A stretch of 63,997 nucleotides of DNA, counting the filler, from Streblomastix strix (taxonomy: Eukaryota), in the NCBI GenBank assembly GCA_008636045.1. It is 4 parts of 4 records of this genome, joined end to end, with 100 filler letters (N's around TTAATTAATTAA, not from the genome) between each part and the next. Parts side by side here need not be neighbours in the genome. Positions count along the whole stretch, not along the records: positions 16,318 to 32,531 come from SNRW01000857.1; 3 more parts are not named here. One strand, 5' to 3'. Of the stretch, positions 10,838 through 59,614 are shown in pieces. Below the pieces are notes generated by a model. The model did no database searches and was not told where the DNA came from. It saw only the letters and a list, made by a program, of their open reading frames with translations. Each line of letters begins with the position of its first letter. Position 1 is the first letter of the stretch. The translations under genes were made by a program, and so were the position numbers.

Positions 10838-13010
10838 ATGGCCTTTCCAAACGCATTTGCTCAGACAGATGAAGTTTAAGAGCTCTAATCACTCGGATTA
10901 TAGGTGAAATTCTTTAGATTTTACTAAATTTTGATTTTTATTCTTCTTTATTTTTATTATTTTTATTTAGGTTATTTAAAGATTGGGGCAGAGTTCAAGG
11001 TTTGAAAAAATTTGATTCTTAGTTTTTAGTTTTTTGCAGAGTTTTCAAGGTTATGGATAATGAGAATTAAGTACTTTGCGCTATAACCAGAAATAGATCG
11101 AATTTTAACCAAATGGAGTGGGCTATAGTCAATGAACTTGCAAAAGAAGAAAAGTTTTATTATTTTTTTTTATTTTTCAAATTAAATTTTTTTTATTTAA
11201 TTTAGATAAGGAGAATATAGTGACTTCATTGTGAAATATATTTCATTGAGCAAAACTCCTTCTTTTTATATTATATTTACAAAATATTATGGTGAAAAGG
11301 TATTTATTTCAATTTTTTTTAATGCATTATATTTATTCATCATTAATTTTAAATTTTTCTTTTTAATATAAAGAATTTAGAGGATTTATCATTAGCAGGA
11401 GTATTCGCTAATAACGAGATTTGCACTTCGGTTATTATTGGTAATATATTGGAAGGAGTTTGTGGATTTTTTAATTTGCGGATACAGTTTTATCAAATTG
11501 TTTTAATAATATTTAGGTAAACGAATTTCATAAACGTGGATTTTCACATGGGTATTTGCTAATAATTTTTAATTTATAATTTTGACTTTTGAAATTTAGT
11601 AATTTGAAGGCTAATAACATATATATAACTGAAGTAGGTCCAGACAAATCAATTGCTGTAGTAACAAATCTCAGCTGTACTCAAAAAATTGGATAAACTT
11701 AAAGAATCTAGCAAAACATGTTTGTTATAATTTAATAATATTATTTATTTATTTTATTTATTGTTTTATCATTTATATAGACCACTTCAATTGCTTGTGT
11801 GTTATTATAATATATAAATAAAGTAATTATCTTATTTTCATGCTTTTCTAGCCCCCAGAATGCTTGCAAGGTTAACCATTTACACCATAGAGTGATTTGT
11901 ATATGATTGGAATCATTATGTACTCAATGCTCTTTAAAAGGTTTTTATAGATTGATATTTAAAGTTTATTATTAGCTATAATTTAATAACTCAATTATAT
12001 GCAGATTACCCTACACATCATAAACTTACCAAGAACTTTTGAATGAACAATAAAGTGGTCCCCCAAATCTAGATAAACTTTTTTTAGGAACTAATAGTGC
12101 TCTATGCACACTTCTGGCTTATGATCCTAATCAACGTTCATCTTGTGAGCAATTACTTCAAAATTCTCCATTATTCAATAAATAAGTAGATATTAATCTT
12201 ATGCAGAGTAATCCATAGTTTGCAGCATAGTTGTAATAATAAAGAGTTTATTAAAGGGGATGTTCTACAATACCCACTCATATATTAGCATAACCAATGC
12301 AACCTTCAGAACTTCTATTTGGAAGACAAACAATTTATTAACCCCCAGTGATAAAATCTGGGGTAATACCACCAAATTTAAAACCTGTTGCAATTGTTCA
12401 GCCCTCACCAGTAATTATTTAGCCTTAACCAGTAATTATTTAGCCTTAACCAGTAATTATTTAACCTTAACCAGTATATGTTTAACCGGGATTAATTCGA
12501 CCAATTAATTCAGTTCCTGAAGATCCTGGCTTTGAGTGTGAAGAATGTCACAAAAAATTCACATTCGACCAGTATAAAGATCATATCCAATAATAGCATT
12601 ATGGATCACCGTATATTTATTTTATTTTTTACAATCACATTATTTAAAATATTTTTTTAAGGTTATATAATAAAGAATTTGGTAGGAATCCCGTACCAAG
12701 CGATGAATCAATCACAATTCCTTGTGAATCATGCAAATAATAAATACCTTTCAGTAAATTCGAAGAACATATGAAAGGACATCAAAACTTAAGAATAGCA
12801 CCTGTCATTAATGATTAAGATGTTACAATTCCTTGTGATCGATGTAAGTAATAAATTCCCTTCAGTTAGTACGATGAGCATATAAAAGGACATCTTAGCC
12901 AAAGGAACGCACCTCCCATTAATGATTAAGATGTAACTATTCCTTGTGATAGATGCCATTAACAAATCCCCTTCAGTTAATATGAATAGCATTTTGCAAC
13001 TCATTAGTGA
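10838..13010 (+). CDS. Multi-intron pseudokinase with Pro/Gln linker and four C-terminal CxxC...H...H zinc fingers
   Basis: Kinase-fold motifs FHKRGFSHGNLKANNIYI, PPECLQGQPFTPQSDLYMIGII and LLAYDPNQRSSCEQLL. Fingers CEECHKKFTFDQYKDHIQQQH, CESCKQQIPFSKFEEHMKGH, CDRCKQQIPFSQYDEHIKGH, CDRCHQQIPFSQYEQHFATH. TGA at 13008-13010. Confidence 0.8.
12399..12483 (+). repeat. Coding 21-bp tandem repeat (QPQPVII x ~4)
   Basis: Unit TAGCCTTAACCAGTAATTATT repeated inside the pseudokinase linker. Confidence 0.9.
12700..13005 (+). repeat. Three 111-bp coding repeats, each one zinc finger
   Basis: First Cys codons at 12723, 12834 and 12945 (period 111). Confidence 0.85.
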
Positions 13011-13176: not shown

Positions 13177-16100
13177 TCAGAATGGTACCAAATCATTCAT
13201 TGATTCTCCAGTGATTAGTTCTTTTGCTCGATCAGCAGCTTCAATTAGATCATCCATAAGTGATGGAGGATCGCTTTCATACTACTATGCCACTAGTATT
13301 AATTAAATATATGTTTAAAATTTATTTAAAATGATGAAATAAACCAAAAGCACACCATCATAAAGTGTACCAAGTACTTCTGAAGATCGCAATATGTGTA
13401 GAGTTTGTGGTTGAACAGTTGCGTTTGATCTTTATTCATATAAATTTTCAATTAATTATAATAGAAAAAGTAAAGCAAAACGAAAATTGTAGACCTGATA
13501 TTTACTAAACATCTACAAACAAATGTTGATAGTGTCAGATCCATAAGCCCAAAATCTGTAATTATTCTGAGAAGTCTACAAAATATGTTAAAAAATCAAA
13601 AGTTGTTTTGGTTTAATATTATCTCATATATATAAAACCTCATAATAACTGATTCGTCATCAGCTTCTTCTTCATCATTGGCATCCAATCCTTTGCTCTT
13701 TACTCCCTACCAAGTCATAAGGGCATCAGCAATTGTTGTATCTTCAGCTAGATTCAAGAGTCCTCCAACTACAGGTGCCAATACTTATGGATCACTGTGA
13801 CCAAGAAGAACTGCATATAATTCATATGCTTTATTGAGATTTTAAAAAAATATGGGAATAAAAAAAGAATTGAATATTAATTGTTGACATATATTGATAT
13901 GTTGTAATGTCAAACCTTTCTTTTCAAGCATGAATTTTCTAACACATGGTAACCTGGTTAAGCTCCCCATTGCACGAGCAGATTCAGAAATCATCTCCTG
14001 ATTACTGTGATATGAAAGTGTGTCACACAGAACACGAACTGCTCTTACACATAAGCATTATGAGTGATCAATACTTGCCAATTCAGATTCATGTGCAACT
14101 GTAATTTCATTTGATATATTAGCGAGCATGCCAACTGTATTAAGAAGTAATTCTTCCTCTTCCAAAGTTAATCCACTTCCAGTATAATTATTAGAAAGAT
14201 TATTTTATGATGAAGATTTATTGAGAGTTGCAGTGAGTGTATTTTCAAGTGTGTTGTGTGTTGCAGATGATGACATGGCTGATCTGTAATTCTCAGCAAG
14301 AGATTCCAACATATCAATTATGCATTTGACAATATCGCCTGGCTAACCATCTTTCTATTTATCAACTTTATTAGACTTATTATATGAGAACAATTCAATC
14401 CTATTTTGTGGTTCTACACATAAATTTGCAATTGCACTAACACATTTGGTTAATTCATCATAAGCAGAAAGGACAATTGTTGAAGAAGGTAAAATATTCT
14501 ATGAATTACTTCCTACCATTGATCCCTGACTTTTCTTCTTTCCTCCTGAAGTTGGTCTGCTTGGTGAAGAAGGACGAGGAAGGATCTATTTTGTTGTCTG
14601 TCCCACAATATGAGGTGGTGTGCTTAGTTTATTTGTAGTTGATGAGGATGTATTTGTATTTCCATTTGGACCAAGTACAACAATCTTATCCCAGGCATTG
14701 AGAAGTAATTTAGACAAAACAGGAATTATTCCACATTCTCCCCATGAACGTCTGTATGCATCAGTTGTTGTATATTAATTAATCTATCCATTCATGTTAC
14801 TCACAGCAAAGAGAATCCTCACAAGAGTGGCTCCATGAACATATGATGGTAATTAAGATGAAGAAGAGGATTTAATAACTGTGTTTCTCTCACCTCGTGG
14901 AGATGAATGTCTTATTTCTGATCCTGAACTCTATTCTCCTCTTCCTGTTATTGTTGCTGCTTTTCTGAGAATTTACATTATACAATTCTAATGAATACGT
15001 TTAGGCTTCATTTTCTCATCTTTCTCATCATGAATTTATTATTATTTGGATGTTTTTTGTATTTACTGTGGTTTTTCTGTATCTTTTTTTCTAAGACTTC
15101 TATTTACTGCTTCCAATTTGTCCTTTTCTTCATTTTTTTCATCTCTTTCATTATTCATTTCAATTACAAAACCAAAATATTCATTTTCTTCACTTTAGAG
15201 CAAAGATAGACATTCTGGAATAAGTGAAATCTTACTCAATATTCGTGAAATATTGAATATAACTTCTTCATCATCAGATTATTTAAGAAGTGAATGTAGG
15301 AATATAGAAAGCAATAAAAATCTTTTGTCTTATTTATTAAATCCATCATTAGTTGCATTCTATTACTATGATCTATCTCCATTTGAATAAGATGGAGAAG
15401 TCTGAAGCTTCTATTAAGATGAAGATGAACTTCCAGATATATTTAATCTTGGTGGTGAATAAGAAGATTAATTTGAATCTGAAAGTAATACCTCCGATTA
15501 AGATGAAGGTAAAGGAGTGTCTATAGAGCCACAAATATTACGAAGAAAGGCTGTAACCTGAATAAGGAAGTTAATAAACATATCAGGATTCTTTGCTAAT
15601 GACTCTTTCATTCCTGCAGACATCTACTTCTATAGTTCAGTACCATCATCAATGATTATTTCTTTTTTGCTTTGTGTTGCATAATAATATGGATTAATAA
15701 CTTATTAGAAAAGAGTGCATATTGTATCTATAGCTCCTGAATGAACCAAAAAAACTTGATTTGTTTCTGCAGAAGCTGTGACATTCTTCAAAATACCAAC
15801 AACATATACAAATACTTCAAAACGAGATGGTGCAGGCATATTAAGTATAGATAATAAAGGTATTAATAACTTCTCTTCATGGAATAATAGATCATTAATA
15901 GCAGATTTAGATAGAGTGAATAATGCTCTGCATGTTTCCATAAGAACAGGAGGAGGAGGATGAGATGTAATTATTATATGAGAAGCACGAAGAATAATCC
16001 TTCCACATTCTTATATTGATAATATAGGAGGTAGTAAACTAGATTATGAAGTAGATCCTGTTTTAGTTTATTCAGAGGATTGTTGTAGTTGAAGAGCTTT

Positions 16101-16217
16101 TTATTAGTTTTGAATGTTTATTGTCAGAATTGGTGAGATATGAGGACCAATCAATGAAAAGGGGAAACATCCTGTATTCTTAAACATTACATCTCTCACT
16201 TTATGTAATGCTTCTAA
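13177..16217 (-). CDS. ARMC2: Armadillo repeat protein, ARMC2-like (5'-partial, several introns)
   Basis: METCRALFTLSK..NDLLF, VYVVGILKNV, LIQVTAFLRN, FNISRILSKIS, EEELLLNTVGMLANIS, ESARAMGSLT and LLGHSDPQVLAPVVGLLNLA follow the ARMC2 motif order. TGA at 13177-13179. Confidence 0.75.
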
Positions 16218-16317
16218 NNNNNNNNNNNNNNNNNNNNNNNNNNNNNNNNNNNNNNNNNNNNTTAATTAATTAANNNNNNNNNNNNNNNNNNNNNNNNNNN
16301 NNNNNNNNNNNNNNNNN
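16218..16317. other. Artificial contig linker N44-TTAATTAATTAA-N44
   Basis: 100-nt spacer; the genes on both sides are truncated at it. Confidence 0.97.
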
Positions 16318-19300
16318 ATGTTGATGGATGTAGAATCTGATAAAATTGATGGTAAAAGTGATTAAAATGATATTGATGATACTTTTGGAGAACTTCCAGA
16401 CATTTCTGGAGCATTAAATGCCCTATAATTTTAATAAGAAGAAGGTTAATATATTTTTTTCATTATATATAATTAAGAGAAATTTTCTCATTGTATTTAT
16501 ACTTATTTTAATTTTGTTGTATCATTAGATGCTAAGAATAAAGTTATTGAAGAGACATAATCTGTTGTTGATGTTTTATTGGAGGAGGAAAAGAGAAACA
16601 AAGAAGACAGAAAAAAGATGGTTTAAAAATAGTTTAAATGTTAAATTCAATTTATATAATTGTAATATATTAATATATATTAATATATGTTAATATTTCA
16701 TTTTCATCCTTAGATTGGATTTGTTCGAGGGGAGAAAGAATTCCCAGATGAAGTTGATGTTCCTTTAGATACATCAGCGAGAGAGAGATTTTCAAAGTTT
16801 GATTTTAAGATATATATATATATATAAATCATTTTTATTTATTCATTAATTTTCAGATATAGGGGTATGCGATCATTCTAATCTTCACCGTGGGATACAA
16901 AGGTTTGAATGCAAAGATATTCATATTACTTTATTATATTCTCTATATTTATATTCTCTATGTTTATATTCTCTATGTTTATATTCTCTATGTTTATATT
17001 CTCTATGTTTATATTCTCTATGTTTATATTCTCTATGTTTATATTCTCTATGTTTATATTCTCTATGTTTATATNNNNNNNNNNNNNNNNNNNNNNNNNN
17101 NNNNNNNNNNNNNNNNNNNNNNNNNNNNNNNNNNNNNNNNNNNNNNNNNNNNNNNNNNNNNNNNNNNNNNNNNNTATATTCTCTATGTTTATATTCTCTA
17201 TGTTTATATTCTCTATGTTTATATTCTCTATGTTTATATTCTCTATGTTTATATTCTCTATGTTTATATTCTCTATGTTTATATTCTCTATGTTTATATT
17301 CTCTATGTTTATATTCATTCTTTCACATTATAGGAGAATTTACCACCAGAGTACAGTCGTATATTTGCCTTTGCCAGTTCTGGATAGACATCCAGAGCAT
17401 CATTGAAGGAGAGTGATATTTGGGTTAGAGAAAATGAAAGACAGAAGATTCCAGAGAATATTGAAGATAAATAAAATGATAAAGAGTAAGAAGGAGATAA
17501 GTAGAGTTATTCAATGGAAAAATAAATTGATCATTAATTAGATAAAGAGAATAAATAATCTTTTCCACTTCATGATTAATTACATCCACATAAACGTCCA
17601 TTTCCTTTCTAACCCGGAGACATAGTAACAATTACTTTGAAAGACATGCCAGTATCTACAGCACAATAAATAATGAATCACTTCTTTCCTTAATAATAAT
17701 AATAGCAAATATAATAATAAGAGCTCATTCCTTAACCATTATTACAGACACAAACATTTCCATCTCCTTTATTCAATTCTAATAATTCATTATCTCAAAT
17801 CCCCATTTCCTCTTCATTATCCTAATATTCTCAATCTTCATTATATTCACCTCATCCACTTGTCATATTTGGTCTTTTACGACATGAACATAAGGTCTCC
17901 GTTCTTCACTTCGCACTCACACTTAATCCATCCATATACACACACAATAATGAACTAATTGAAGAATAGAAAAAGAAAGGAGTAATAAATTCAATGATTG
18001 AATAAGAAAATAAAAATATTAATTCTTCATATACAAATTCAATTTCTTTATTACATCCAATTCCTCCTTTATAATCTAAGGTTGATTTGAATTTTAAATT
18101 TATGATTTTTTAAAATATTACTAATTTTATTTTTAATTTCAATCCTTAATATTACATTTTCAGTCTCAGCTTCTTATATAGGTCGGTTTTCGGCGTTTAA
18201 AATGTCGCCCAATTTTCTCAACTATATCAACACGTTCGTAGACATCAACAACAACAATATAGACTTAATAAAATTAATCATCTTCATCATCTTCTACGGA
18301 AAATACTCTATCAACCTCAGTTATTAAAACAACAAGTTCAAAAGGAAAATATATGAAGGTATATATTTGATATTAATCTTTACATTTGTAAATATTTCAT
18401 TGTTTTTATATTTTTTATGTTTTATTTATTGAAATTATTATTTAGGAAGTTAATTTTGGTTTAAATACTCTCGTTATTGCAAGCACATATGCTCCAATTA
18501 CATTTGGTAAAGTACCCGTCCTTATGTTTAGAAATGAAGAATAAAACACACCATTCAATCTTTAAGGCGATTAACGATAATAAGAAATACTAGAAGAAAG
18601 AAAATTAGGAAAAGACTAAAATCCATTTGCCATTCAGAAATAGACATCTTTTATGTCTTCATTTTCTCAATCTTAATTTGGATAACTTCGTTTACCATTT
18701 ACTTAATCTCTTATTCCTTCATAACCGTAGTTATCTTCAAATCCTCATTAATTAACTCTAACTCAATAGATTCCTACAACTTTATCATTATCACTTCCAT
18801 CTTTTCCTCTTCTTGTAGCTAATGGATCAACATATTCCATTGATCCCGATAGATTAATAATCAAACGTATTATTCTCACTGGTTTGATTGATATTTTATT
18901 TATTACTTATCTCATTAAATTTCTTCTTATTATCAACTAGGATACCCTGTAAAAATACATAAGGGGACTTCTGCTATCATCCGATATATGTTCTTCTCTC
19001 CAGGTTTTGAAAAAAAATTTATCATTTTACTTTATTATTTAAAATTATTATATGCTCATTATTAATCATTTTTCATTGTTGTTATTTAATTATCACAAAG
19101 ACGACATTAACTGGTTCAAACCTGTTGATCTGTGGACAAAGAAGGGGAAACTCGGACGTATTAAAGAGCCACTCGGTACACATGGATATTTCAAGGTTCT
19201 GATGAATCATTTATTTCATTTCTTTATTAATTTGTCTATTAAAAAATATTCAGGCAATATTCAGTGGTCGTTTGGATCAGGCTGAAACAGTCTGCATGTC

Positions 19301-19337
19301 ACTTTACAAAAGAGTCTTTCCATAATGGAACTTCTGA
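16318..19337 (+). CDS. TSR1: Pre-rRNA processing protein TSR1 (5'-partial, multi-intron)
   Basis: EFPDEVDVPLDTSARERFSKYRGMRSFQSSPWDTKENLPPEYSRIF, GLLRHEHKVSVLHF and DINWFKPVDLWTKKGKLGRIKEPLGTHGYFK...VCMSLYKRVFP. TGA at 19335-19337. Confidence 0.95.
16935..17316 (+). repeat. Intronic 15-bp minisatellite (ATATTCTCTATGTTT)n spanning a 100-N gap
   Basis: Near-perfect tandem units inside a TSR1 intron. Confidence 0.97.
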
Positions 19338-19606
19338 ATAATAAATTAATCAATATGAGTGAAACATTTGTTGTTAATATATTTATTTATACATTTAAAT
19401 TATTTAACGATTAATATGAAATATAGCACGGTAATTATGACAATTTAGACAGTAAATTTATGTGAATTGACATGTGATTGATGAATTTTGATAATAAAAT
19501 GTTAATATTTATTCAAAGAATAAATAATAATTAAGATAAAATTAAATTAAAAATAAAATTATTAATTTTACATTCTAATATATACAACTGAGGAATCATT
19601 TTGAAG

Positions 19607-22600
19607 TCAATTTCCAGATGATGCAAGAATTGGGTTTCCCAAACTACTTGGGTTGAAGAAACCCATCTAATTTCCCATAATTCCAAGGCTTCCTTATTAA
19701 GATTGTATATATTGTTACATGGATATGTTAACTGGATCGATAATATTCATTTGATTTTAGTTCTATTAGTCGATATTCATCCCAGATATATTCTGAAGGG
19801 CTTAAATATTATTAATCTATGATAGATTTCCATTATTCTATTAATTTTATTATTGAATATCTTATCCATCATTACTTTTATTTATAACAGATGTGAGTAT
19901 TCCATTTGATATCTCGTGAATACTTTATTTAATCCTTTCAACAGTCTCATCATAATACATTTTTTCAGTCATGCTTACATCTTAACTTGAATCCATGAAT
20001 TGTCTGACTGAAGGCATCTCTTCAAAAGCATCAAGGTTAATCTGGAGGTCAAGAAGACTCTAACCAACTTTCTCTCCCATAAACAGAGCAAACTCACAAT
20101 CTATAGTTTTTAAATGCACATTTTGAAGTGTAGAGAAGAATGTAAGGCAATCTTCTGATGTTGGAAGTTCGACTATTGTTTTTGATAAATTAACTTTCTC
20201 ACCTCCGCTTTCCTATATTGCTTTCTTTTTTATTTCCTATTCAACTTTAATTAAGTTTATTTCATCCTCAAACTATTTGAAGCACTTTAATACCTCTTCG
20301 TGGAATTTCATCAGTTTACGCATTATTTATACATGATCTGACTTATGCTGATCAGCAGAAACAGAAGGAAGACCAAGTTTATTCATCAACATCTCTTCAT
20401 CTGAACAATGAGTACTCATACGCCAGACAAGAACATCGAGCATTAATTGGAGTATTGAACTACTTGCAATTATTACATCATCTTTTTCACTATCATTGTG
20501 CTCTTTTTCTTTTCTACGCTTAATGCATTTATCACGTTCATCTGTGATTGCTTTTCCTACTATTGTCATTGTTTCATAGAGTTACTTATGAGCAGCATCC
20601 ATACGATTTACTGTTGTAGCAAGTTCTTCATCAAATACAACCTAATCAATGCTTTTACCTTTTTAAACTGTCTATGTAATGATATTTATCCACTGTGTCT
20701 AGGAAGATACTTCTCTAAGTTATTGAGGGAGAGGAATGAAAAATATAAAAGATAATATTAAGATAATAACACTAAGTGCTATGAACAGAACTAGTAGTAT
20801 AGTAGAGTATTAGCTTGAGAATTTATCCAAATTATCCATAAGGTAATCTCCAATCTAATTCAGACCATAAAGAATATCATTGCGAGCACTTTCAATGATA
20901 AATGAGAAATCAGTGTCGTTGAAGGGAATATTATCCACAATCTCAGGATTGCGAGTCATTAAATCTTCAATGCTCTGCTAAAAACGGTCAAGAAGACTTT
21001 CAAGGCCGTTAAAAGGATAAGTAATTCCAGGCATGCGGTTCTAATCTAAACATCTCTCTGCACCTGTTTAAGCTTTTGATATTGAACTTTCTGGAAAGTC
21101 CTATTATATAAATTAATTGTAATTATAATAATTATATTAATAATAATAATAATAATAAATATGTATACAATATCTGAAGGAAGTAAACATGATGTTTCTT
21201 CATTCATAATTGTATCAATGAATGAGTCCTTTCCCTAAACACGTTTGCATTTAGTACTATCAAACAAAGCGTCTCCAATATTATCAGCTTATTTACTACC
21301 ATATTGAAATTTAGAATTTTAACTTGCAAAGACTTAATTGAGACTGCGAATAGAAGGTCTTAATTCATCAACATCTGTTCCAAAAATATTACTTCCAAAT
21401 ACTTTTGAATAAACAGAAGTAGGAGTAATGACTAAACTATCATTTGTTACATGATATGTGGTATCAGAAACATAAATAGTGCAGAATGCAGAAAGTCTGA
21501 TAACATTGATTACTCGTATTTCGTTCATCGCAATCTGACCAGCTCGCCAAACAAGCTAATCCATCGCATATACAGCAACAATGAAGAAAGGAGATATGAT
21601 AATGATTATTAATAATGTTCCTAAGATCAATTGAACAATAACTCGCATTGGAATAATACCAGTAATGCTACTCAATTTCTTTTCTACATCTTCTGATCTT
21701 TGTTATGCCAAGTGTTACTTCTCTTCTTCTTCTTCATTAATATTCTCTCCATCCAAATCTTTATTTGCATTTCCTGTTTCTAATACATTTGGTTATGTTT
21801 ATTCAACTCTTTATCCTTCTATGTTACCATAACCTATTTAATCTTCTTACTTCTCAATTTATTTGGCTCGTTCCTGTTTAATATTCATTTGCTATATATC
21901 GGATCTTCCTGGTTACTAAGTGGATATCTTCCCTAATTCTTCAACTTATTCTTCAGTTTTAACAATGTTTATTGATTTTGATGTATCTATTCGTCCAAAT
22001 TTTAGTAGAATATCTTTTTTCTTATCTGTTTCCAGAGGTATTATTTTCGTAGATTGAATGATTATTTCATTGCTTTTTTCCTATTAAAGTTAAACATTTT
22101 ATTATTGATTTGGTACTTTTGGAGGTTTGTCCAATGAAGTTTATGACTAACCAGCTTAACCCTTATTTTTAATTGATTTTAATTTAAATTTGGAAGTCGA
22201 TGTATTTGGTTAAATTTTTTATAATTTGCTTAAAAATGCTGAGGACGAATTCGTTAACTATTGTTTTTATTATTATAAAGGCGAAATATTATTTTAATTG
22301 TCATTTGATTTATTTTTGTTATGTTATTATGCATTAACAGGGCTATTTGACTTAATAATATTTCTATCTGATGTTTATGGACTATTATCACTGCTTCTAA
22401 TATAGCTCATCTCAGATTACTGATTATCTATGGATAATAATTCCTGAAATTTGGATCTGTGTGTTTCTTATTACTATGAATTTTAATCAGAAATATCAGA
22501 TTCTCCTTTCCCTTATTTTTTCTCTTAAACTGGAATACTCTAATCATCCATGTTCTCCAGAAGATTATACATAATTTAAGCATCTTCTGCGGTAACAGCA

Positions 22601-24572
22601 CAAATATCTCGCATTTTCTGCTTACGATCTGATGAAACGCGATGAATTTGAATCAACATCGGAATCAATAGTCCAATTAAGAGTGCAAGTATTCCAATAG
22701 CCAAACAGATTAATACAGTCATTGTCCCTGATTATGAATATTTCTATACATCTTCATTTGCTATTATACTAATGCGCTTCATTGTCTCAACACCTAAATA
22801 GGGAATATTAAATACAAGAGGTGCAAGGTGCCTTTTCATATCAACAAATTATGTTCTATTAGTGTCCGGATTTAAATCTCCAATATTAGCAAAGTCTGCA
22901 ACCATCTATACAATGCTATCTTCAGCCCAACTCATAAACCTTGGTAGATTCTATAAATAGACAGAAGATTCAATTATATTCGTATAGTTGGTACTTGGTA
23001 CTGTTACATTGAGTACAAGTTAATTCCATTCAATATCGACCACCTTCCAGACATCTTTCTAAAAACCCCATTTATAGAGTTGATAAAATTCATCATTTAA
23101 TTCATATAGTGTCTTATTTAGTGTAGAAAATCCAGAGTCATATATACTTTTATATGAATTAACCTCTGCAGCTGAATTTCTATCAACGTTGAGTATTCTA
23201 AGCATTGTATATGTTGAAAATTCTAAAGCAGTACACATCTTCTCAGCTACATTAATTGATTATCGCAATGCTTTAGCAGCATTGACTGCTTTAGTGAAGT
23301 CAGAGTTTATAAATATATATGAGAATACAAAAAGGAATATTACAATTAAGAGTGATATGTACAGAAGAATTAGAATAACATTCATAATTGTCTCATTTCT
23401 AGAATCAATAGATTCTTATGATCCTGTCATTCCTCCATTCTTACTTGATACTCCACTTCCAATCCTTAAATTAGCATGTTTACTAACTTTATGAGAACGA
23501 ATATCACCCATTCCTTAAATTGAATCTCTTCCTTCTTTATTTTCATCAATATCCATTTAAGATAACCAATGATTCTCTACTTATGAAATGGATTATGTTC
23601 CTTAACTGCGATTTTGTACTCCTTTTATTAAACGAGCATTATTATGAGCATTGATTGCTTATTCCTCTTTTATTTATTCTTATTCCATTAATTCTGCCTC
23701 TTCCAACATATCATTGGCTGTTTTGGAATCTGTATATATCTGACGTATAAGCTATGAATATTATCTAAGCACATTTGGATTATCTGAGAATGTTTATAGC
23801 AGTTCTTGATATATATTCTGTGCCTACATAGAGTGAAATGCAGCTTAACATCCATGAAACATTGCACGATCAACGTCAACTGTTCTACGAGAAAGGAGAG
23901 TCCAAAGACGCATCAAATGAGCTTTTGCAAAGTCAAATGATTTCTGAGCTTATATAAGTTAGATACGAAGGTTGTGTGTCTTTGTATCTTGCAAAGAGAT
24001 TGATCCACTTTGAATCCCACCTTATCCTCCTAATTAATTATTTGATCCAATTGATCCTTCTTCTATTCCTCTTAACGCTCTGAATATAATCCATCGATTT
24101 GTCCATCCAGGAAATAATTCAGCAGCTCGTTACATGTGTTATATAATCTTAATTGGTTAAGGTCTGAAGTTCTCAAGGAATATTGCAACAGACACATTGA
24201 GTTCTGCAGACTGTTGCATATCATTCTTCCTCAGAGCTCCCATCATAATAACATTCACAAATGTAACTATCTTCACTTGCATAGAAACTTCTTCTAAAGT
24301 CATAAATCTCATAATCTTCTCTAACTGAGATGGAGTTTCAATTGATTTAAGAACCTATCTGACAACAGGAGGAGTAGCAAGAAGAGGAGACGAGGTCCAT
24401 TATATATTTGGATGTGATGAATATATTACTCCTTCAGTCGGACGATCAACAATAACTAAATTAATTTTCTTTGGAGGTATACTAGTTTTCATTCCAATTG
24501 CAGCTTTTACAGCCAGAGATTTATTTTTTATTTATGAGATTGGAGATGGAACTTTGGTTAAACTTGTTCTTG
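19607..24572 (-). CDS. TmcB/TmcC-like multi-pass membrane protein with C-terminal hemerythrin-like domain (5'-truncated)
   Basis: TPR-like AQNIYQELLQTFSDNPNVLRQYSQLIRQIY..ANDMLEEAE, two TM pairs flanking extracellular loops, a Q-rich linker, then H / HxxxE / HxxxH / HxxxxD motifs. The frame continues through the 296-bp spacer. One intron. Confidence 0.75.
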
Positions 24573-27500
24573 GTGAAGATAGTTACATTTGTGAATGTTA
24601 TTATGATGGGAGCTCTGAGGAAGAATGATATGCAACAGTCTGCAGAACTCAATGTGTCTGTTGCAATATTCCTTGAGAACTTCAGACCTTAACCAATTAA
24701 GATTATATAACACATGTAACGAGCTGCTGAATTATTTCCTGGATGGACAAATCGATGGATTATATTCAGAGCGTTAAGAGGAATAGAAGAAGGATCAATT
24801 GGATCAAATAATTAATTAGGAGGATAAGGTGGGATTCAAAGTGGATCAATCTCTTTGCAAGATACAAAGACACACAACCTTCGTATCTAACTTATATAAG
24901 CTCAGAAATCATTTGACTTTGCAAAAGCTCATTTGATGCGTCTTTGGACTCTCCTTTCTCGTAGAACAGTTGACGTTGATCGTGCAATGTTTCATGGATG
25001 TTAAGCTGCATTTCACTCTATGTAGGCACAGAATATATATCAAGAACTGCTATAAACATTCTCAGATAATCCAAATGTGCTTAGATAATATTCATAGCTT
25101 ATACGTCAGATATATACAGATTCCAAAACAGCCAATGATATGTTGGAAGAGGCAGAATTAATGGAATAAGAATAAATAAAAGAGGAATAAGCAATCAATG
25201 CTCATAATAATGCTCGTTTAATAAAAGGAGTACAAAATCGCAGTTAAGGAACATAATCCATTTCATAAGTAGAGAATCATTGGTTATCTTAAATGGATAT
25301 TGATGAAAATAAAGAAGGAAGAGATTCAATTTAAGGAATGGGTGATATTCGTTCTCATAAAGTTAGTAAACATGCTAATTTAAGGATTGGAAGTGGAGTA
25401 TCAAGTAAGAATGGAGGAATGACAGGATCATAAGAATCTATTGATTCTAGAAATGAGACAATTATGAATGTTATTCTAATTCTTCTGTACATATCACTCT
25501 TAATTGTAATATTCCTTTTTGTATTCTCATATATATTTATAAACTCTGACTTCACTAAAGCAGTCAATGCTGCTAAAGCATTGCGATAATCAATTAATGT
25601 AGCTGAGAAGATGTGTACTGCTTTAGAATTTTCAACATATACAATGCTTAGAATACTCAACGTTGATAGAAATTCAGCTGCAGAGGTTAATTCATATAAA
25701 AGTATATATGACTCTGGATTTTCTACACTAAATAAGACACTATATGAATTAAATGATGAATTTTATCAACTCTATAAATGGGGTTTTTAGAAAGATGTCT
25801 GGAAGGTGGTCGATATTGAATGGAATTAACTTGTACTCAATGTAACAGTACCAAGTACCAACTATACGAATATAATTGAATCTTCTGTCTATTTATAGAA
25901 TCTACCAAGGTTTATGAGTTGGGCTGAAGATAGCATTGTATAGATGGTTGCAGACTTTGCTAATATTGGAGATTTAAATCCGGACACTAATAGAACATAA
26001 TTTGTTGATATGAAAAGGCACCTTGCACCTCTTGTATTTAATATTCCCTATTTAGGTGTTGAGACAATGAAGCGCATTAGTATAATAGCAAATGAAGATG
26101 TATAGAAATATTCATAATCAGGGACAATGACTGTATTAATCTGTTTGGCTATTGGAATACTTGCACTCTTAATTGGACTATTGATTCCGATGTTGATTCA
26201 AATTCATCGCGTTTCATCAGATCGTAAGCAGAAAATGCGAGATATTTGTGCTGTTACCGCAGAAGATGCTTAAATTATGTATAATCTTCTGGAGAACATG
26301 GATGATTAGAGTATTCCAGTTTAAGAGAAAAAATAAGGGAAAGGAGAATCTGATATTTCTGATTAAAATTCATAGTAATAAGAAACACACAGATCCAAAT
26401 TTCAGGAATTATTATCCATAGATAATCAGTAATCTGAGATGAGCTATATTAGAAGCAGTGATAATAGTCCATAAACATCAGATAGAAATATTATTAAGTC
26501 AAATAGCCCTGTTAATGCATAATAACATAACAAAAATAAATCAAATGACAATTAAAATAATATTTCGCCTTTATAATAATAAAAACAATAGTTAACGAAT
26601 TCGTCCTCAGCATTTTTAAGCAAATTATAAAAAATTTAACCAAATACATCGACTTCCAAATTTAAATTAAAATCAATTAAAAATAAGGGTTAAGCTGGTT
26701 AGTCATAAACTTCATTGGACAAACCTCCAAAAGTACCAAATCAATAATAAAATGTTTAACTTTAATAGGAAAAAAGCAATGAAATAATCATTCAATCTAC
26801 GAAAATAATACCTCTGGAAACAGATAAGAAAAAAGATATTCTACTAAAATTTGGACGAATAGATACATCAAAATCAATAAACATTGTTAAAACTGAAGAA
26901 TAAGTTGAAGAATTAGGGAAGATATCCACTTAGTAACCAGGAAGATCCGATATATAGCAAATGAATATTAAACAGGAACGAGCCAAATAAATTGAGAAGT
27001 AAGAAGATTAAATAGGTTATGGTAACATAGAAGGATAAAGAGTTGAATAAACATAACCAAATGTATTAGAAACAGGAAATGCAAATAAAGATTTGGATGG
27101 AGAGAATATTAATGAAGAAGAAGAAGAGAAGTAACACTTGGCATAACAAAGATCAGAAGATGTAGAAAAGAAATTGAGTAGCATTACTGGTATTATTCCA
27201 ATGCGAGTTATTGTTCAATTGATCTTAGGAACATTATTAATAATCATTATCATATCTCCTTTCTTCATTGTTGCTGTATATGCGATGGATTAGCTTGTTT
27301 GGCGAGCTGGTCAGATTGCGATGAACGAAATACGAGTAATCAATGTTATCAGACTTTCTGCATTCTGCACTATTTATGTTTCTGATACCACATATCATGT
27401 AACAAATGATAGTTTAGTCATTACTCCTACTTCTGTTTATTCAAAAGTATTTGGAAGTAATATTTTTGGAACAGATGTTGATGAATTAAGACCTTCTATT

Positions 27501-29242
27501 CGCAGTCTCAATTAAGTCTTTGCAAGTTAAAATTCTAAATTTCAATATGGTAGTAAATAAGCTGATAATATTGGAGACGCTTTGTTTGATAGTACTAAAT
27601 GCAAACGTGTTTAGGGAAAGGACTCATTCATTGATACAATTATGAATGAAGAAACATCATGTTTACTTCCTTCAGATATTGTATACATATTTATTATTAT
27701 TATTATTATTAATATAATTATTATAATTACAATTAATTTATATAATAGGACTTTCCAGAAAGTTCAATATCAAAAGCTTAAACAGGTGCAGAGAGATGTT
27801 TAGATTAGAACCGCATGCCTGGAATTACTTATCCTTTTAACGGCCTTGAAAGTCTTCTTGACCGTTTTTAGCAGAGCATTGAAGATTTAATGACTCGCAA
27901 TCCTGAGATTGTGGATAATATTCCCTTCAACGACACTGATTTCTCATTTATCATTGAAAGTGCTCGCAATGATATTCTTTATGGTCTGAATTAGATTGGA
28001 GATTACCTTATGGATAATTTGGATAAATTCTCAAGCTAATACTCTACTATACTACTAGTTCTGTTCATAGCACTTAGTGTTATTATCTTAATATTATCTT
28101 TTATATTTTTCATTCCTCTCCCTCAATAACTTAGAGAAGTATCTTCCTAGACACAGTGGATAAATATCATTACATAGACAGTTTAAAAAGGTAAAAGCAT
28201 TGATTAGGTTGTATTTGATGAAGAACTTGCTACAACAGTAAATCGTATGGATGCTGCTCATAAGTAACTCTATGAAACAATGACAATAGTAGGAAAAGCA
28301 ATCACAGATGAACGTGATAAATGCATTAAGCGTAGAAAAGAAAAAGAGCACAATGATAGTGAAAAAGATGATGTAATAATTGCAAGTAGTTCAATACTCC
28401 AATTAATGCTCGATGTTCTTGTCTGGCGTATGAGTACTCATTGTTCAGATGAAGAGATGTTGATGAATAAACTTGGTCTTCCTTCTGTTTCTGCTGATCA
28501 GCATAAGTCAGATCATGTATAAATAATGCGTAAACTGATGAAATTCCACGAAGAGGTATTAAAGTGCTTCAAATAGTTTGAGGATGAAATAAACTTAATT
28601 AAAGTTGAATAGGAAATAAAAAAGAAAGCAATATAGGAAAGCGGAGGTGAGAAAGTTAATTTATCAAAAACAATAGTCGAACTTCCAACATCAGAAGATT
28701 GCCTTACATTCTTCTCTACACTTCAAAATGTGCATTTAAAAACTATAGATTGTGAGTTTGCTCTGTTTATGGGAGAGAAAGTTGGTTAGAGTCTTCTTGA
28801 CCTCCAGATTAACCTTGATGCTTTTGAAGAGATGCCTTCAGTCAGACAATTCATGGATTCAAGTTAAGATGTAAGCATGACTGAAAAAATGTATTATGAT
28901 GAGACTGTTGAAAGGATTAAATAAAGTATTCACGAGATATCAAATGGAATACTCACATCTGTTATAAATAAAAGTAATGATGGATAAGATATTCAATAAT
29001 AAAATTAATAGAATAATGGAAATCTATCATAGATTAATAATATTTAAGCCCTTCAGAATATATCTGGGATGAATATCGACTAATAGAACTAAAATCAAAT
29101 GAATATTATCGATCCAGTTAACATATCCATGTAACAATATATACAATCTTAATAAGGAAGCCTTGGAATTATGGGAAATTAGATGGGTTTCTTCAACCCA
29201 AGTAGTTTGGGAAACCCAATTCTTGCATCATCTGGAAATTGA
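24573..29242 (+). CDS. Mirror copy of the TmcB-like/hemerythrin gene (no start codon)
   Basis: Reverse complement of 19607-24276. Intron 27681-27748; TGA at 29240-29242. Confidence 0.7.
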
Positions 29243-29511
29243 CTTCAAAATGATTCCTCAGTTGTATATATTAGAATGTAAAATTAATAATTTTATTTTT
29301 AATTTAATTTTATCTTAATTATTATTTATTCTTTGAATAAATATTAACATTTTATTATCAAAATTCATCAATCACATGTCAATTCACATAAATTTACTGT
29401 CTAAATTGTCATAATTACCGTGCTATATTTCATATTAATCGTTAAATAATTTAAATGTATAAATAAATATATTAACAACAAATGTTTCACTCATATTGAT
29501 TAATTTATTAT

Positions 29512-32500
29512 TCAGAAGTTCCATTATGGAAAGACTCTTTTGTAAAGTGACATGCAGACTGTTTCAGCCTGATCCAAACGACCACTGAATATTGCCTGAA
29601 TATTTTTTAATAGACAAATTAATAAAGAAATGAAATAAATGATTCATCAGAACCTTGAAATATCCATGTGTACCGAGTGGCTCTTTAATACGTCCGAGTT
29701 TCCCCTTCTTTGTCCACAGATCAACAGGTTTGAACCAGTTAATGTCGTCTTTGTGATAATTAAATAACAACAATGAAAAATGATTAATAATGAGCATATA
29801 ATAATTTTAAATAATAAAGTAAAATGATAAATTTTTTTTCAAAACCTGGAGAGAAGAACATATATCGGATGATAGCAGAAGTCCCCTTATGTATTTTTAC
29901 AGGGTATCCTAGTTGATAATAAGAAGAAATTTAATGAGATAAGTAATAAATAAAATATCAATCAAACCAGTGAGAATAATACGTTTGATTATTAATCTAT
30001 CGGGATCAATGGAATATGTTGATCCATTAGCTACAAGAAGAGGAAAAGATGGAAGTGATAATGATAAAGTTGTAGGAATCTATTGAGTTAGAGTTAATTA
30101 ATGAGGATTTGAAGATAACTACGGTTATGAAGGAATAAGAGATTAAGTAAATGGTAAACGAAGTTATCCAAATTAAGATTGAGAAAATGAAGACATAAAA
30201 GATGTCTATTTCTGAATGGCAAATGGATTTTAGTCTTTTCCTAATTTTCTTTCTTCTAGTATTTCTTATTATCGTTAATCGCCTTAAAGATTGAATGGTG
30301 TGTTTTATTCTTCATTTCTAAACATAAGGACGGGTACTTTACCAAATGTAATTGGAGCATATGTGCTTGCAATAACGAGAGTATTTAAACCAAAATTAAC
30401 TTCCTAAATAATAATTTCAATAAATAAAACATAAAAAATATAAAAACAATGAAATATTTACAAATGTAAAGATTAATATCAAATATATACCTTCATATAT
30501 TTTCCTTTTGAACTTGTTGTTTTAATAACTGAGGTTGATAGAGTATTTTCCGTAGAAGATGATGAAGATGATTAATTTTATTAAGTCTATATTGTTGTTG
30601 TTGATGTCTACGAACGTGTTGATATAGTTGAGAAAATTGGGCGACATTTTAAACGCCGAAAACCGACCTATATAAGAAGCTGAGACTGAAAATGTAATAT
30701 TAAGGATTGAAATTAAAAATAAAATTAGTAATATTTTAAAAAATCATAAATTTAAAATTCAAATCAACCTTAGATTATAAAGGAGGAATTGGATGTAATA
30801 AAGAAATTGAATTTGTATATGAAGAATTAATATTTTTATTTTCTTATTCAATCATTGAATTTATTACTCCTTTCTTTTTCTATTCTTCAATTAGTTCATT
30901 ATTGTGTGTGTATATGGATGGATTAAGTGTGAGTGCGAAGTGAAGAACGGAGACCTTATGTTCATGTCGTAAAAGACCAAATATGACAAGTGGATGAGGT
31001 GAATATAATGAAGATTGAGAATATTAGGATAATGAAGAGGAAATGGGGATTTGAGATAATGAATTATTAGAATTGAATAAAGGAGATGGAAATGTTTGTG
31101 TCTGTAATAATGGTTAAGGAATGAGCTCTTATTATTATATTTGCTATTATTATTATTAAGGAAAGAAGTGATTCATTATTTATTGTGCTGTAGATACTGG
31201 CATGTCTTTCAAAGTAATTGTTACTATGTCTCCGGGTTAGAAAGGAAATGGACGTTTATGTGGATGTAATTAATCATGAAGTGGAAAAGATTATTTATTC
31301 TCTTTATCTAATTAATGATCAATTTATTTTTCCATTGAATAACTCTACTTATCTCCTTCTTACTCTTTATCATTTTATTTATCTTCAATATTCTCTGGAA
31401 TCTTCTGTCTTTCATTTTCTCTAACCCAAATATCACTCTCCTTCAATGATGCTCTGGATGTCTATCCAGAACTGGCAAAGGCAAATATACGACTGTACTC
31501 TGGTGGTAAATTCTCCTATAATGTGAAAGAATGAATATAAACATAGAGAATATAAACATAGAGAATATAAACATAGAGAATATAAACATAGAGAATATAA
31601 ACATAGAGAATATAAACATAGAGAATATAAACATAGAGAATATAAACATAGAGAATATAAACATAGAGAATATANNNNNNNNNNNNNNNNNNNNNNNNNN
31701 NNNNNNNNNNNNNNNNNNNNNNNNNNNNNNNNNNNNNNNNNNNNNNNNNNNNNNNNNNNNNNNNNNNNNNNNNNATATAAACATAGAGAATATAAACATA
31801 GAGAATATAAACATAGAGAATATAAACATAGAGAATATAAACATAGAGAATATAAACATAGAGAATATAAACATAGAGAATATAAACATAGAGAATATAA
31901 ATATAGAGAATATAATAAAGTAATATGAATATCTTTGCATTCAAACCTTTGTATCCCACGGTGAAGATTAGAATGATCGCATACCCCTATATCTGAAAAT
32001 TAATGAATAAATAAAAATGATTTATATATATATATATATCTTAAAATCAAACTTTGAAAATCTCTCTCTCGCTGATGTATCTAAAGGAACATCAACTTCA
32101 TCTGGGAATTCTTTCTCCCCTCGAACAAATCCAATCTAAGGATGAAAATGAAATATTAACATATATTAATATATATTAATATATTACAATTATATAAATT
32201 GAATTTAACATTTAAACTATTTTTAAACCATCTTTTTTCTGTCTTCTTTGTTTCTCTTTTCCTCCTCCAATAAAACATCAACAACAGATTATGTCTCTTC
32301 AATAACTTTATTCTTAGCATCTAATGATACAACAAAATTAAAATAAGTATAAATACAATGAGAAAATTTCTCTTAATTATATATAATGAAAAAAATATAT
32401 TAACCTTCTTCTTATTAAAATTATAGGGCATTTAATGCTCCAGAAATGTCTGGAAGTTCTCCAAAAGTATCATCAATATCATTTTAATCACTTTTACCAT

Positions 32501-32531
32501 CAATTTTATCAGATTCTACATCCATCAACAT
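29512..32531 (-). CDS. TSR1: Mirror copy of TSR1
   Basis: Reverse complement of 16318-19337. Confidence 0.9.
31533..31914 (-). repeat. Mirror copy of the 15-bp minisatellite
   Basis: (AAACATAGAGAATAT)n with a 100-N gap. Confidence 0.97.
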
Positions 32532-32631
32532 NNNNNNNNNNNNNNNNNNNNNNNNNNNNNNNNNNNNNNNNNNNNTTAATTAATTAANNNNNNNNNNNNN
32601 NNNNNNNNNNNNNNNNNNNNNNNNNNNNNNN
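32532..32631. other. Artificial contig linker
   Basis: N44-TTAATTAATTAA-N44. Confidence 0.97.
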
Positions 32632-34173: not shown

Positions 34174-34839
34174 TCATGAGTCTAATATCTTTATTTTTAT
34201 TCCATCATTACTACATTATACCATTAAGGCTTATTTCGTTGTTAAATTTAAATATCATTCCCACACTTTATCTTTATTAAATGGTATAGAAGATTAATAA
34301 TAAAATAAGTTAAATTTCTTTCTTTTGAATCCATCGAAAAAGTAAATTGTATCGACATTAGCTTTTATATTTGCATCAAGAACTATTATGTCCTATAGAC
34401 ATAGAAATTATGTGATTCTTGGCTATCTATTCTTGAATAGCTTTTTGAATAATGTTAATTAATTTATTAGATGTTTCTCAACAACAGTATCATATGCTGC
34501 TTTTGCCTCAATGAGGTCATTAAGCACCCCATCAATCTCACCATAAGTAACAATCTTTGTTGGAATATTGATTAATGTACTCATCCTCTTATATGTTTAA
34601 TCATTATTGCTATCTGTAACATATATAAATAATGTATACCAGTTCTTAATCTAACTCAATTTGATTAATTCTTTGAATACATTGTATGACTTACCACTTC
34701 CTCTCTATCCAATAAGCAAGTTAATAGAATTATACGTAAAGTTAATTTCCTTGTGAATTGTACTTTATACCTCATGTTTATTCGTGACTTCACTCTCTAG
34801 TAATTCATTTACATATAGAGTTAGTGAATGATTTGACAT
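34174..34839 (-). pseudogene. A32/FtsK-HerA-type DNA packaging ATPase, degraded
   Basis: Walker A NLLIGQRGSGKS (34687-34710) and NRQPRITQFLCLQD (Arg finger/sensor Gln). No Walker B visible; internal TGA at 34255-34257. Confidence 0.75.
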
Positions 34840-34858
34840 TTATTTACAGTTGAAACTA

Positions 34859-36072
34859 ATGATTGACATGTAGTTAATATCTATTTTTTTGCTTAAACTA
34901 AGTGAGTGAACAAACTTAATAAAGTGGATCTTAATAGCCATGTGTTGCAAAATGATTAGAATATACTTCTCGTACTAAGTCAAGAGTTTAAGAACCAGGT
35001 TAATATGAAAGTAAAGGAATAATACTATCATATGAGACTTATCAGAAGATAATAGGACCATAATTAAAATTAAATTAAGAGTTGAAAGATAATAAAGATT
35101 GTAAAAAGGTTAAAGAATAATCATTTGCGAAAGAAAATGAGATTTTAGCGTAATCAGTATAGTAATCATATGCTCCACTAATAGATTTGATTGGTAAGAA
35201 TAAAGATATTCAATTTAAGAAAATGTGGTCAAATTAGCCATCATTTGAAAAGTGAAAGAAGAGTAGAAAAAATCTTAGATAAAAGAAATGGGTTGGATCT
35301 GGTGAAGATATTAATGGTGATAAATTTCCAGAGTTTGTTGTTCGTGATGATAGAGGATTTATTCAATCAGCTGTTGGACTTAGAATTACAGTTCCAATTA
35401 AGCGTCAAAAAGTCACCAAATATTTCACTGAAAATCCAACTAAAGAAGCACGTTAAGAGAAACATTATAAATAACGGAAACAAGAAGATAAACCAGCAGA
35501 TAGCTATAGACATTTCATTAAAAATATCTATCTCTTTTCTTGAAAGTGCGTGGCTATACTGTTGCTTCAGTTTATTCAGTCATTAGAGGTAGGATATGGA
35601 AGGTAGTTATTGCTCCATTGGTATTGCAATATTATGATAAATCATATTAAGCATAATCATTTATTGGAGGTGATGCTACATCACTAGCAATACATAAGAA
35701 ATTGAGTAAAGCAATAAAATTAGCATATAATTTATATTTCATAACTGGTGAAAGTGAATAAAGAGATAATTAGATGATGAAATTAATATAAGTAAGTTAT
35801 GCAGGATTTTGGAATAGTGAATTAGGAGAAATTCCTGATGATACAAATGATGAGAGTGAAGCAATATTGAGAATTCCTCTGAGTTAGATATTAAAACTAC
35901 AAAATAGAAAATAGATGAGAAGAGAGTAATTGAACAATAATAATATGAAAATAATATAGCAAAAATAAGAGCAAGGAAATATCCTAAATTTAATGAAGGG
36001 AAGATATTAGAAAATGCTATACTACTATCTTTTGAATTCGAAAATGATTTAGATGATTATGTAACAGAATGA
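34859..36072 (+). pseudogene. Decayed virus-associated hypothetical ORF
   Basis: Readable blocks such as WVGSGEDINGDKFPEFVVRDDRGFIQSAVG, broken by frameshifts and stops. Divergent from the ATPase. Confidence 0.4.
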
Positions 36073-42324: not shown

Positions 42325-42599
42325 TTTTGATTTTTGACGATCAGTACCATTGATTGTACATTTTAAAAACTAATCGTTAATAAAAATTGTATCTTAAATG
42401 CATTTTTTGTTTATTCATATTCACATAAACTAGTAAATTGAAATTTCTAACTTACATACTGATTCTGAGGATCTTCACTCTTTTAAACTTTTATACCTTT
42501 AAATTCAATGCAACTTACCAACTATATATTAATTTATTAATACTTAAACATGAATTATATAAAAAATCGAAAATGCTCAAATTATACATATTTCTGTTT
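42298..42599. repeat. 38-bp inverted repeat (1 mismatch): 42298-42335 and 42562-42599
   Basis: AAACAGAAATATGTATAATTTGAGCATTTTtGATTTTT pairs with AAAAATCgAAAATGCTCAAATTATACATATTTCTGTTT; 226-bp spacer. Confidence 0.92.
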
Positions 42600-55970: not shown

Positions 55971-56044
55971 ATATTTATTTAAAAATAAAAATAATTATCA
56001 AACGAAATCAGCTGCAGGCGGAAGTTAAAGACGACATATTGGAA

Positions 56045-56251: not shown

Positions 56252-56334
56252 TTATTTTAAAATAAAAATAATAGATTCATTTGTTTTAATCATTATTATA
56301 ATCATTTATATTATTTATTTTTATTTATTTAAAA

Positions 56335-58100: not shown

Positions 58101-58109
58101 ATATATAAA

Positions 58110-58759: not shown

Positions 58760-58794
58760 TAATATAAAAATAAAAAAGATATCCAATGATAAAA

Positions 58795-59596: not shown

Positions 59597-59614
59597 TTAT
59601 TTTTTGTTTTTAAC

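Follow-up and report, generated by a model that had tools for sequence, protein, structure and literature searches.

Hemerythrin domains of the O2-binding type carry the signature H-HxxxE-HxxxH-HxxxxD (five histidines, one glutamate and one aspartate), in which three histidines bind one iron and two bind the iron that takes up O2, as laid out in the relevant passages of PMC9388753. A domain of this kind, fused terminally to a membrane signalling protein, is a known mark of bacterial hemerythrin sensors, according to corresponding passages of PMC9388753 and PMC4919030. The characterised bacterial fusions autoxidise rapidly and their output is switched by redox state rather than by ligand binding; the N-terminal loop of DcrH is ordered in the oxidised form and disordered in the reduced one, and Bhr-DGC as well as Bhr-HD-GYP autoxidise without a stable oxy form (PMC9388753, same passages). 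In eukaryotes, the survey passage of PMC4919030 counts four genomes with O2-binding hemerythrins out of 135, none of them from an oxymonad. A different membrane scaffold is described in the part of PMC2914791 devoted to the TMACs of Trichomonas vaginalis: six to eight N-terminal transmembrane (TM) helices, a conserved cytosolic domain, four to six TM helices around two outer domains and a C-terminal cytosolic cyclase. Here we analyse a stretch of 63,997 nucleotides from Streblomastix strix (assembly GCA_008636045.1; hereafter the window), which contains on its minus strand a gene for a TmcB-type receptor ending in a hemerythrin domain, and we document the ligand motif, the fusion and the gene family to which it belongs. 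To our knowledge, S. strix is a termite-gut protist without mitochondria, and the oxymonads are the only eukaryotes known to lack them. This family may bear on the way in which such mitochondrion-free gut protists detect O2.

A hemerythrin ligand set at the end of a TmcB-type receptor

Long reading frames are open in the window only under genetic code 6 (24 open reading frames (ORFs) of at least 100 aa under code 1, 84 of at least 200 aa under code 6); GC content ranges from 23 to 34%. TAR encodes Gln in the oxymonad S. strix, as stated in the pertinent part of PMC13002328. Under this code, one minus-strand frame aligns H 20590, H 20410, E 20398, H 20347, H 20335, H 20116 and D 20101, so that the H (20590-20588), HxxxE (20410/20398), HxxxH (20347/20335) and HxxxxD (20116/20101) elements announced in a preliminary description of this DNA are all present at 20099-20590 and the S. 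strix domain bears the signature of the O2-binding type. When the exon was shuffled 20,000 times, a pattern of loose hemerythrin-like spacing turned up once, and over the six frames of the window it matched the real site and its mirror copy only; the seven-ligand motif is beyond chance. The gene is organised as follows.

21169..24578, minus strand: exon A of the TmcB-type receptor, an open frame under code 6; the 5' part of the gene is lost at the fold-back junction
23674..23952, minus strand: TPR_TmcB domain (PF25474; E 4.7e-11, 43.1 bits, cut-off 27), predicted cytosolic
22636..23382, minus strand: module 1, composed of a TM helix (23382-23308), a predicted outer domain of ~195 aa and a TM helix (22716-22636), from hydropathy and family alignment
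21643..22635, minus strand: long low-complexity loop, predicted cytosolic; the frame is open, and the loop is mostly spliced out in the NCBI model P0004
20729..21642, minus strand: module 2, composed of a TM helix (21642-21562), a predicted outer domain of ~210 aa with a conserved Cys pair and the last TM helix (20800-20729); contains the intron
21101..21168, minus strand: predicted intron, 68 nt, AT-rich, GT..AG, from the sequence; the same join is used in P0004 and homologs are continuous across it
20609..20725, minus strand: post-TM helix (residues 7-27 of the model) and hemerythrin N-terminal loop; from residue 31 on, the model aligns to DcrH starting at residue 4
20069..20608, minus strand: predicted hemerythrin four-helix bundle with the seven canonical ligands, from motif and model
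20471..20539, minus strand: charged insert 1, ~23 aa, in the A-B connection, limits approximate (His1-His2 spacing 60, versus 37 in P0010 of Monocercomonoides exilis)
20171..20284, minus strand: charged insert 2, ~38 aa, in the C-D connection, limits approximate (His4-His5 spacing 73, versus 35 in P0010)
19904..20062, minus strand: family-specific helical extension of ~50 aa, C-terminal to the hemerythrin, conserved in most family members (pLDDT 80-98 by block)
19607..19903, minus strand: N/Q-rich tail and stop codon
24573..32631, plus strand: inverted duplicate of 16218-24276 with a mirror hemerythrin at 28259-28750, from zero mismatches and the branch point

The frame of exon A is open over 1,134 codons (24570-21169, minus strand, code 6) and the hemerythrin exon over 497 (21100-19610, minus strand). 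The TmcB/TmcC-type scaffold of the preliminary description is borne out, since PF25474 scores above its cut-off and four TM helices enclosing two outer domains follow the TPR; hydropathy indeed gives four hydrophobic helices between TPR_TmcB and the hemerythrin, which lies C-terminal to the last of them, as had been noted, and ~25 residues away. The two modules form a weak internal repeat (hhalign probability 81–86%, control 0.1%). The hemerythrin tail is predicted to face the cytosol, and this topology is likely: net charge bias is consistent with it at three of the four helices. The ratios of glycosylation sequons, used as a topology test, are 0.61 and 1.23 and favour neither side. The identical database protein, EZS28_005571 of S. 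strix (P0004), bears the UniRef name 'TmcB/TmcC TPR repeats domain' and is the sole match of the domain among longer proteins; word-based homolog searches of this kind, each of which returned one protein, say little about breadth. Its NCBI model begins in the spacer at 24363-24572 (plus strand), on the wrong strand, and splices out two in-frame open stretches; the first dozen residues are probably a fold-back artefact. The ~50-aa extension falls outside most matches to plasmid bacteriohemerythrins, one of 35 records reaching 80% of the query P0022.

The duplicate listed above bears on how the locus is to be read. Over 8,059 bp, positions 24573-32631 repeat 16218-24276 as its reverse complement, with zero mismatches and mirrored N gaps; the two arms flank a 296-bp spacer. 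In run X1 (the sequencing runs containing DNA of this locus are termite gut metagenomes), the spacer leaves position 24578 by two paths, the mirrored arm at a depth of 94 and other sequence at a depth of 27, and the branch point is a 6-bp word (24573-24578) common to both; read by hand, the minus-strand frame stays open through 30 letters of the alternative continuation. Fold-back chimeras arise in whole-genome amplification, and the inverted duplicate is most likely one of them; a genuine inverted duplication carried by some of the cells is a less likely alternative. The sequence reported in the preliminary description at ~28240-28750 is there (28259-28750, plus strand), but perfect identity, the mirrored gaps and the branch in the reads speak against its being a second gene. 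With a fold-back chimera, it is the minus-strand copy that shows the gene in its genuine surroundings, and the assembly lacks the N-terminal membrane block of that gene. The inverted duplication also doubles a Tsr1/BMS1-type gene (PF04950 at 17340-19282).

Location inside the fold-back region and lack of the 5' block could suggest that the locus is itself an assembly artefact or a pseudogene. We regard this as extremely improbable: a contig of run X2 (4,283 bp) matches the mirrored copy at 25047-29329 but for 2 differences and, like a contig from another study, spans the segment from TM helix to hemerythrin, the frames are open over the two exons, and homologs keep the same order of parts. The contig of the second study (X3) covers 28054-28444 with 4 differences and reaches from the last TM helix into the hemerythrin, of which it includes the first half; of three listed differences, two are silent and one lies in insert 1. 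The TM–hemerythrin fusion is not an assembly error. At 28849 and 28876 of the plus-strand copy, the X1 and X2 contigs depart from the assembly by one silent change and one substitution of His for Gln in the C-terminal extension, the latter also present in P0005; this is either an allele or a difference in the assembly consensus.

The oxymonad family and the predicted fold

A search of 1.84 billion representatives gave 35 homolog matches at E <= 0.001, one of which (P0026), a repeat/integrase-like protein, is spurious and was discarded as a family member. Fourteen of the 20 clusters looked up are tied to M. exilis, Blattamonas nauphoetae or S. strix, six have no organism and none points to another lineage; the family counts at least eight long proteins in M. 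exilis, six in B. nauphoetae and two in S. strix. Judging from these sequences, the TmcB–hemerythrin fusion is a large gene family in oxymonads, whose architecture is retained in the three species: PF25474 and PF01814 both score above cut-off in P0015, P0045 and P0047, and in longer members an N-terminal block of ~5–9 predicted TM helices is followed by the TPR, another four helices and finally the hemerythrin, giving ~11–12 TM helices in full-length homologs. The N-terminal block, present in longer homologs such as P0010, P0032 and P0040, is the part lost at 24578 in the S. strix locus. A scan of 13 homologs revealed no PAS, cyclase or RGS match in Pfam at E <= 0.5, and the UniRef name of P0024, 'RGS domain-containing', was accordingly set aside as a clue to an output domain. 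Several members were already named 'hemerythrin' automatically or manually; among them, the NCBI M. exilis protein 'Hemerythrin' is a 1,324-aa TmcB–hemerythrin fusion, and MONOS_7061 has an InterProScan hemerythrin match in a supplement of PMC10703272.

Two members stand apart. P0019 of Blattamonas (3,353 aa) contains two entire TmcB–hemerythrin units in tandem, with two TPR matches and two hemerythrin-like domains; it is either a genuine fusion or the product of merging two gene models. Its second unit and P0049, the two most divergent members, display an 'LL..LP'-like helix end right after the last TM helix, which presumably resembles the signalling helix preceding class III cyclases; such an end would fit a hemerythrin having replaced a cyclase.

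The AlphaFold model built from a 29-row alignment (pLDDT 88.9, pTM 0.84) predicts the four-helix fold on which the preliminary description had staked its assignment, with helices at 46-82, 91-123, 127-179 and 196-225 followed by the helical extension (228-280); a single-sequence model (pLDDT 46) was discarded. Hemerythrins reach the highest Foldseek probabilities (up to 0.94). When the 265 chains returned by Foldseek were realigned with VIA-align, DcrH-Hr came first (Z 13.2–13.4, root mean square deviation (rmsd) 2.0–2.1 Å, 133 of 133 DcrH residues), followed by the hemerythrin of M. capsulatus (Z 12.5–12.6) and invertebrate hemerythrins (Z 10.6–10.8); the best unrelated helical bundle scored Z 10.9 at 4.6 Å. 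A Z of 13 is close to the tool's caution line for helical bundles, hence the importance of the sequence evidence. In the PDB, the family profile likewise matches DcrH-Hr and the bacteriohemerythrin of M. capsulatus best (E 1e-10 to 5e-14) and myohemerythrin less well, and all ligands and the N-terminal Trp loop of DcrH are in register in these alignments. Thus, by profile and by predicted fold, the domain is close to DcrH and bacteriohemerythrin.

These comparisons also bear on a second possible input. Hemerythrin-fold iron sensors exist in eukaryotes (FBXL5 and plant BRUTUS), and the S. strix protein might similarly sense cytosolic iron, or another metal, by the filling and emptying of its site, and adjust uptake or signalling at the surface. 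Ligand variants among the paralogs could grade metal affinity, and for the hemerythrin domains of P1B-5 ATPases the choice between iron and O2 is left undecided in the passage of PMC9388753 that treats them. The motif, however, is of the O2-binding type, FBXL5 lies further from the model (Z 7.8–8.0, rmsd 3.6 Å) than the O2-binding hemerythrins do, and the profile searches of the PDB returned no FBXL5 chain among their matches. We therefore deem iron sensing quite unlikely.

Proposed function and ligand conservation

We lean towards the view that the protein is a TmcB-type multi-pass receptor whose C-terminal, bacterial-type hemerythrin makes it a DcrH-like cytosolic sensor of O2 or redox state. 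Its host is an anaerobic gut protist, as the preliminary description supposed, and O2 is nearly nil in termite and cockroach hindguts except at the periphery (PMC12887300). The positions lining the O2 pocket were fixed through the McHr L114 and DcrH I119 mutants in the profile alignments. The hydrophobic pattern used for comparison has Phe after His2, Trp-Leu before His5 and Ile after it, and the other eight seven-ligand paralogs have Phe, Trp-Ile/Val and Ile/Phe; the S. strix copy has Cys after His2, Leu-Gln before His5, with Leu in place of the conserved Trp, and Leu after His5, so that its pocket appears polar or eroded. In the mechanism that we propose, the domain would bind two irons, and leaking O2 would quickly oxidise the diferrous site without forming a stable oxy adduct, because Gln takes the place of the solvent-gating Leu (McHr L114) and Cys and Leu occupy two other pocket positions. 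The order of the N-terminal loop would then shift with redox state, as proposed for DcrH, and could in turn shift the state of the receptor, since the loop is tied to the last TM helix through ~25 residues that include one short helix. As the chain contains no enzyme, the output would reach putative partner proteins by way of the TPR domain, the N-terminal membrane block or the C-terminal extension. Paralogs missing one ligand might be retuned, single-metal or non-sensing variants. Sensing of NO, also put forward in the preliminary description, is set aside as a specific claim, the evidence pointing neither way.

Several observations weigh against this interpretation. The S. strix domain falls under the curated thresholds of TIGR02481 (hemeryth_dom; E 2.4e-9, 37.3 bits, cut-off 51.75), NF033749 (NCBIfam bacteriohemerythrin; E 1.6e-7, 31.5 bits, cut-off 84) and PF01814 (E 0.004, 18 bits, cut-off 25.3), partly because of its two long inserts (~23 and ~38 aa relative to P0010), which themselves count against it; the insert-free paralogs P0015, P0016, P0020/P0045 and P0022/P0047 pass the PF01814 cut-off. 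Foldseek returned no PDB match at E <= 0.001, and the confidence of the model is partly derived from the family, the other rows of the 29-row alignment being canonical. The S. strix copy is alone among 30 domains in having Gln at the L98/L114 position (McHr L114). Neither the S. strix protein nor the scanned homologs show a recognised output domain (MCP, GGDEF or HD-GYP) in Pfam, and the homology of the scaffold to the TMACs rests on described topology, not on alignment. Finally, only nine of the 30 domains, the S. strix copy included, keep all seven ligands, and 17 have lost the second histidine; O2 binding therefore cannot be the universal job of the family. The hemerythrin identity itself is supported by sequence, profile and predicted fold, even with the scores of this copy under the curated cut-offs (single-sequence phmmer found 0 matches in the PDB at E <= 10), and we class the domain as a divergent hemerythrin-like domain rather than as a curated-family member. 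Of its inserts, the preliminary description had seen the one ahead of the last motif and missed the one in the A-B connection.

The 30 domains were counted after leaving out the S. strix gene's own copies, five fragments that stop ahead of the first helix or inside it, nine duplicates from within the same clusters, the spurious P0026 and P0049, which is split; P0018, which ends in a low-complexity stretch, was scored as a miss at the last two ligands. His1 is kept in 26 domains, His2 in 13, Glu, His3 and His4 (E116, H133 and H137) in all 30, His5 in 25 and Asp (D215) in 29. Insert-free paralogs with seven ligands include KAH7816728 of M. exilis and MONOS_3906, and MONOS_957 is among those lacking His2. 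On a quick tree (SH-aLRT only, unrooted, one long-branch warning), His2 needs four changes, two of them forced by starred branches, His1 three, His5 two and the other four ligands none. His1 and His2 are, we assume, the pair on the O2-taking iron, and with this pattern metal binding looks selected throughout the family and the O2-side site in only part of it. The preliminary description had made its proposal depend on the conservation of the histidines in homologs; they are conserved in part, the HxxxH pair being kept throughout and the second histidine lost in 17 domains. In P0009, P0014 and P0048, which group with modest support, His2 is kept and His5 is replaced by Asp (H-HxxxE-HxxxH-DxxxxD), possibly yielding a carboxylate-richer di-metal site.

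The same counts suggest another role for the domain: it could bind metal for structure or docking, possibly a single metal in the three-His half-site, with the outer domains doing the sensing and the seven ligands being a leftover of the bacterial donor. The loss of the O2-side histidine, in at least four changes on the tree where Glu, HxxxH and Asp need none, the eroded pocket of the S. strix copy and the presence of two outer domains that could be the true input all go in this direction. Yet the nine seven-ligand members are spread over three named species at ~25–30% identity, which drift alone would not favour, and most members with losses have lost one ligand only. On balance, we hold a structural or docking role to be unlikely.

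A further proposal stems from the M. exilis hemerythrin, which the relevant passages of PMC6759080 place among the oxygen-stress proteins, citing the protection of Fe-S enzymes in Campylobacter; membrane fusion goes unmentioned in those passages. By extension, the family could be made of membrane-tethered scavengers of O2 (or of NO or peroxide) that shield Fe-S enzymes. However, one di-iron site per receptor-like chain of 1,300–2,700 residues makes a poor sink, the chain has no reductase partner and the O2-site ligand is gone from many paralogs, all of which renders scavenging highly improbable compared with the O2/redox sensor favoured here.

The following other genes of the window show no apparent link to the receptor: a zinc-finger repeat protein (11907-13007), an armadillo-repeat protein (13599-16199), a repeat-rich, surface-like ORF of 1,369 aa without Pfam match (38308-42414), an SMC hinge protein (46985-48841) and a BTB protein (49127-50908). 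At 34258-35412 (minus strand) an ORF encodes a Walker A motif and matches nothing in Pfam, and a series of broken ORFs at ~53000-61000 is likewise without Pfam match; these are possibly, at a guess, mobile-element remnants. A short AT-rich tandem repeat (unit ~16 bp, 16940-17310) flanks an N gap within the Tsr1-type gene region.

Comparison with known sensors and receptors

The architecture, presented as uncharacterised in the preliminary description, has kept that status: our literature searches, which covered few subscription papers and whose scope did not extend to the supplement of PMC6759080 (which may list these genes), found no description of a hemerythrin–TmcB fusion. As far as searched, it joins two known parts in a manner not described so far and has expanded in oxymonads; its function is one that we infer, the S. 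strix copy is a divergent member and parts of the family were already flagged by automatic annotation. The annotation of the M. exilis 'hemerythrin' merits re-reading, the NCBI protein of that name being a fusion. The domain, soluble and ~200 aa long, lends itself to expression and assay; its natural ligand variants would serve as built-in controls, and the family has members in two cultured species.

Among known systems, DcrH of Desulfovibrio vulgaris (PDB codes 2AVK and 2AWC) is the best profile and fold match, N-terminal loop included, and shares with the S. strix protein the seven-ligand motif and a C-terminal hemerythrin, predicted to be cytosolic in S. strix, on a membrane signalling protein. 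The scaffolds differ, HAMP-MCP in DcrH versus a eukaryotic TmcB scaffold (TPR and two outer domains) in S. strix, where the hemerythrin comes directly after the last TM helix, and the S. strix protein further departs from DcrH by its two inserts, its 50-aa extension, the lack of an output domain in the chain and many ligand-loss paralogs. Bhr-DGC of Vibrio cholerae and Bhr-HD-GYP of Ferrovum are also fusions of a hemerythrin to a signalling protein, and their autoxidation is the behaviour that we would expect of the polar-pocket S. strix copy, but they are soluble, with an N-terminal hemerythrin and a catalytic output, none of which applies to the S. strix protein. Both this protein and its homologs do combine, in one chain, a hemerythrin with another functional part; the fusion may thus act like the hemerythrin-domain sensors, yet it stays outside that class for want of a recognised output domain. 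P1B-5 ATPases resemble it as polytopic membrane proteins with a cytosolic C-terminal hemerythrin and a role in either O2 or iron (relevant passage of PMC9388753); they are metal pumps and bear a different motif, H-HxxxE-HxE-HxxxxD. Like the S. strix domain, FBXL5 and BRUTUS are eukaryotic regulatory proteins of the hemerythrin fold, but they are soluble parts of ubiquitin ligases, not membrane receptors. Their ligand motif differs from the O2-binding type, and the fold of FBXL5 is more distant from our model (Z 8.0 at 3.6 Å).

The closest counterpart of the scaffold is provided by the Trichomonas TMACs, which have the same described topology and likewise form a large paralog family. Where they bear a class III cyclase, the S. 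strix protein ends in a hemerythrin, Pfam having revealed no cyclase; the likeness, drawn from described topology and not from alignment, suggests a swap of terminal domains. The little-studied TmcB scaffold would then hold a sensor at the position that descriptions of related proteins assign to a cyclase. Tentatively, and at less than even odds, oxymonads may have acquired a bacterial hemerythrin, substituted it for the cyclase that a TmcB-type receptor carried and expanded the product into a set of surface O2/redox receptors tuned by the stepwise loss of single ligands; if so, a non-heme di-iron gas receptor would sit in a eukaryotic membrane, and the oxygen-stress 'hemerythrin' of M. exilis would be largely a receptor domain.

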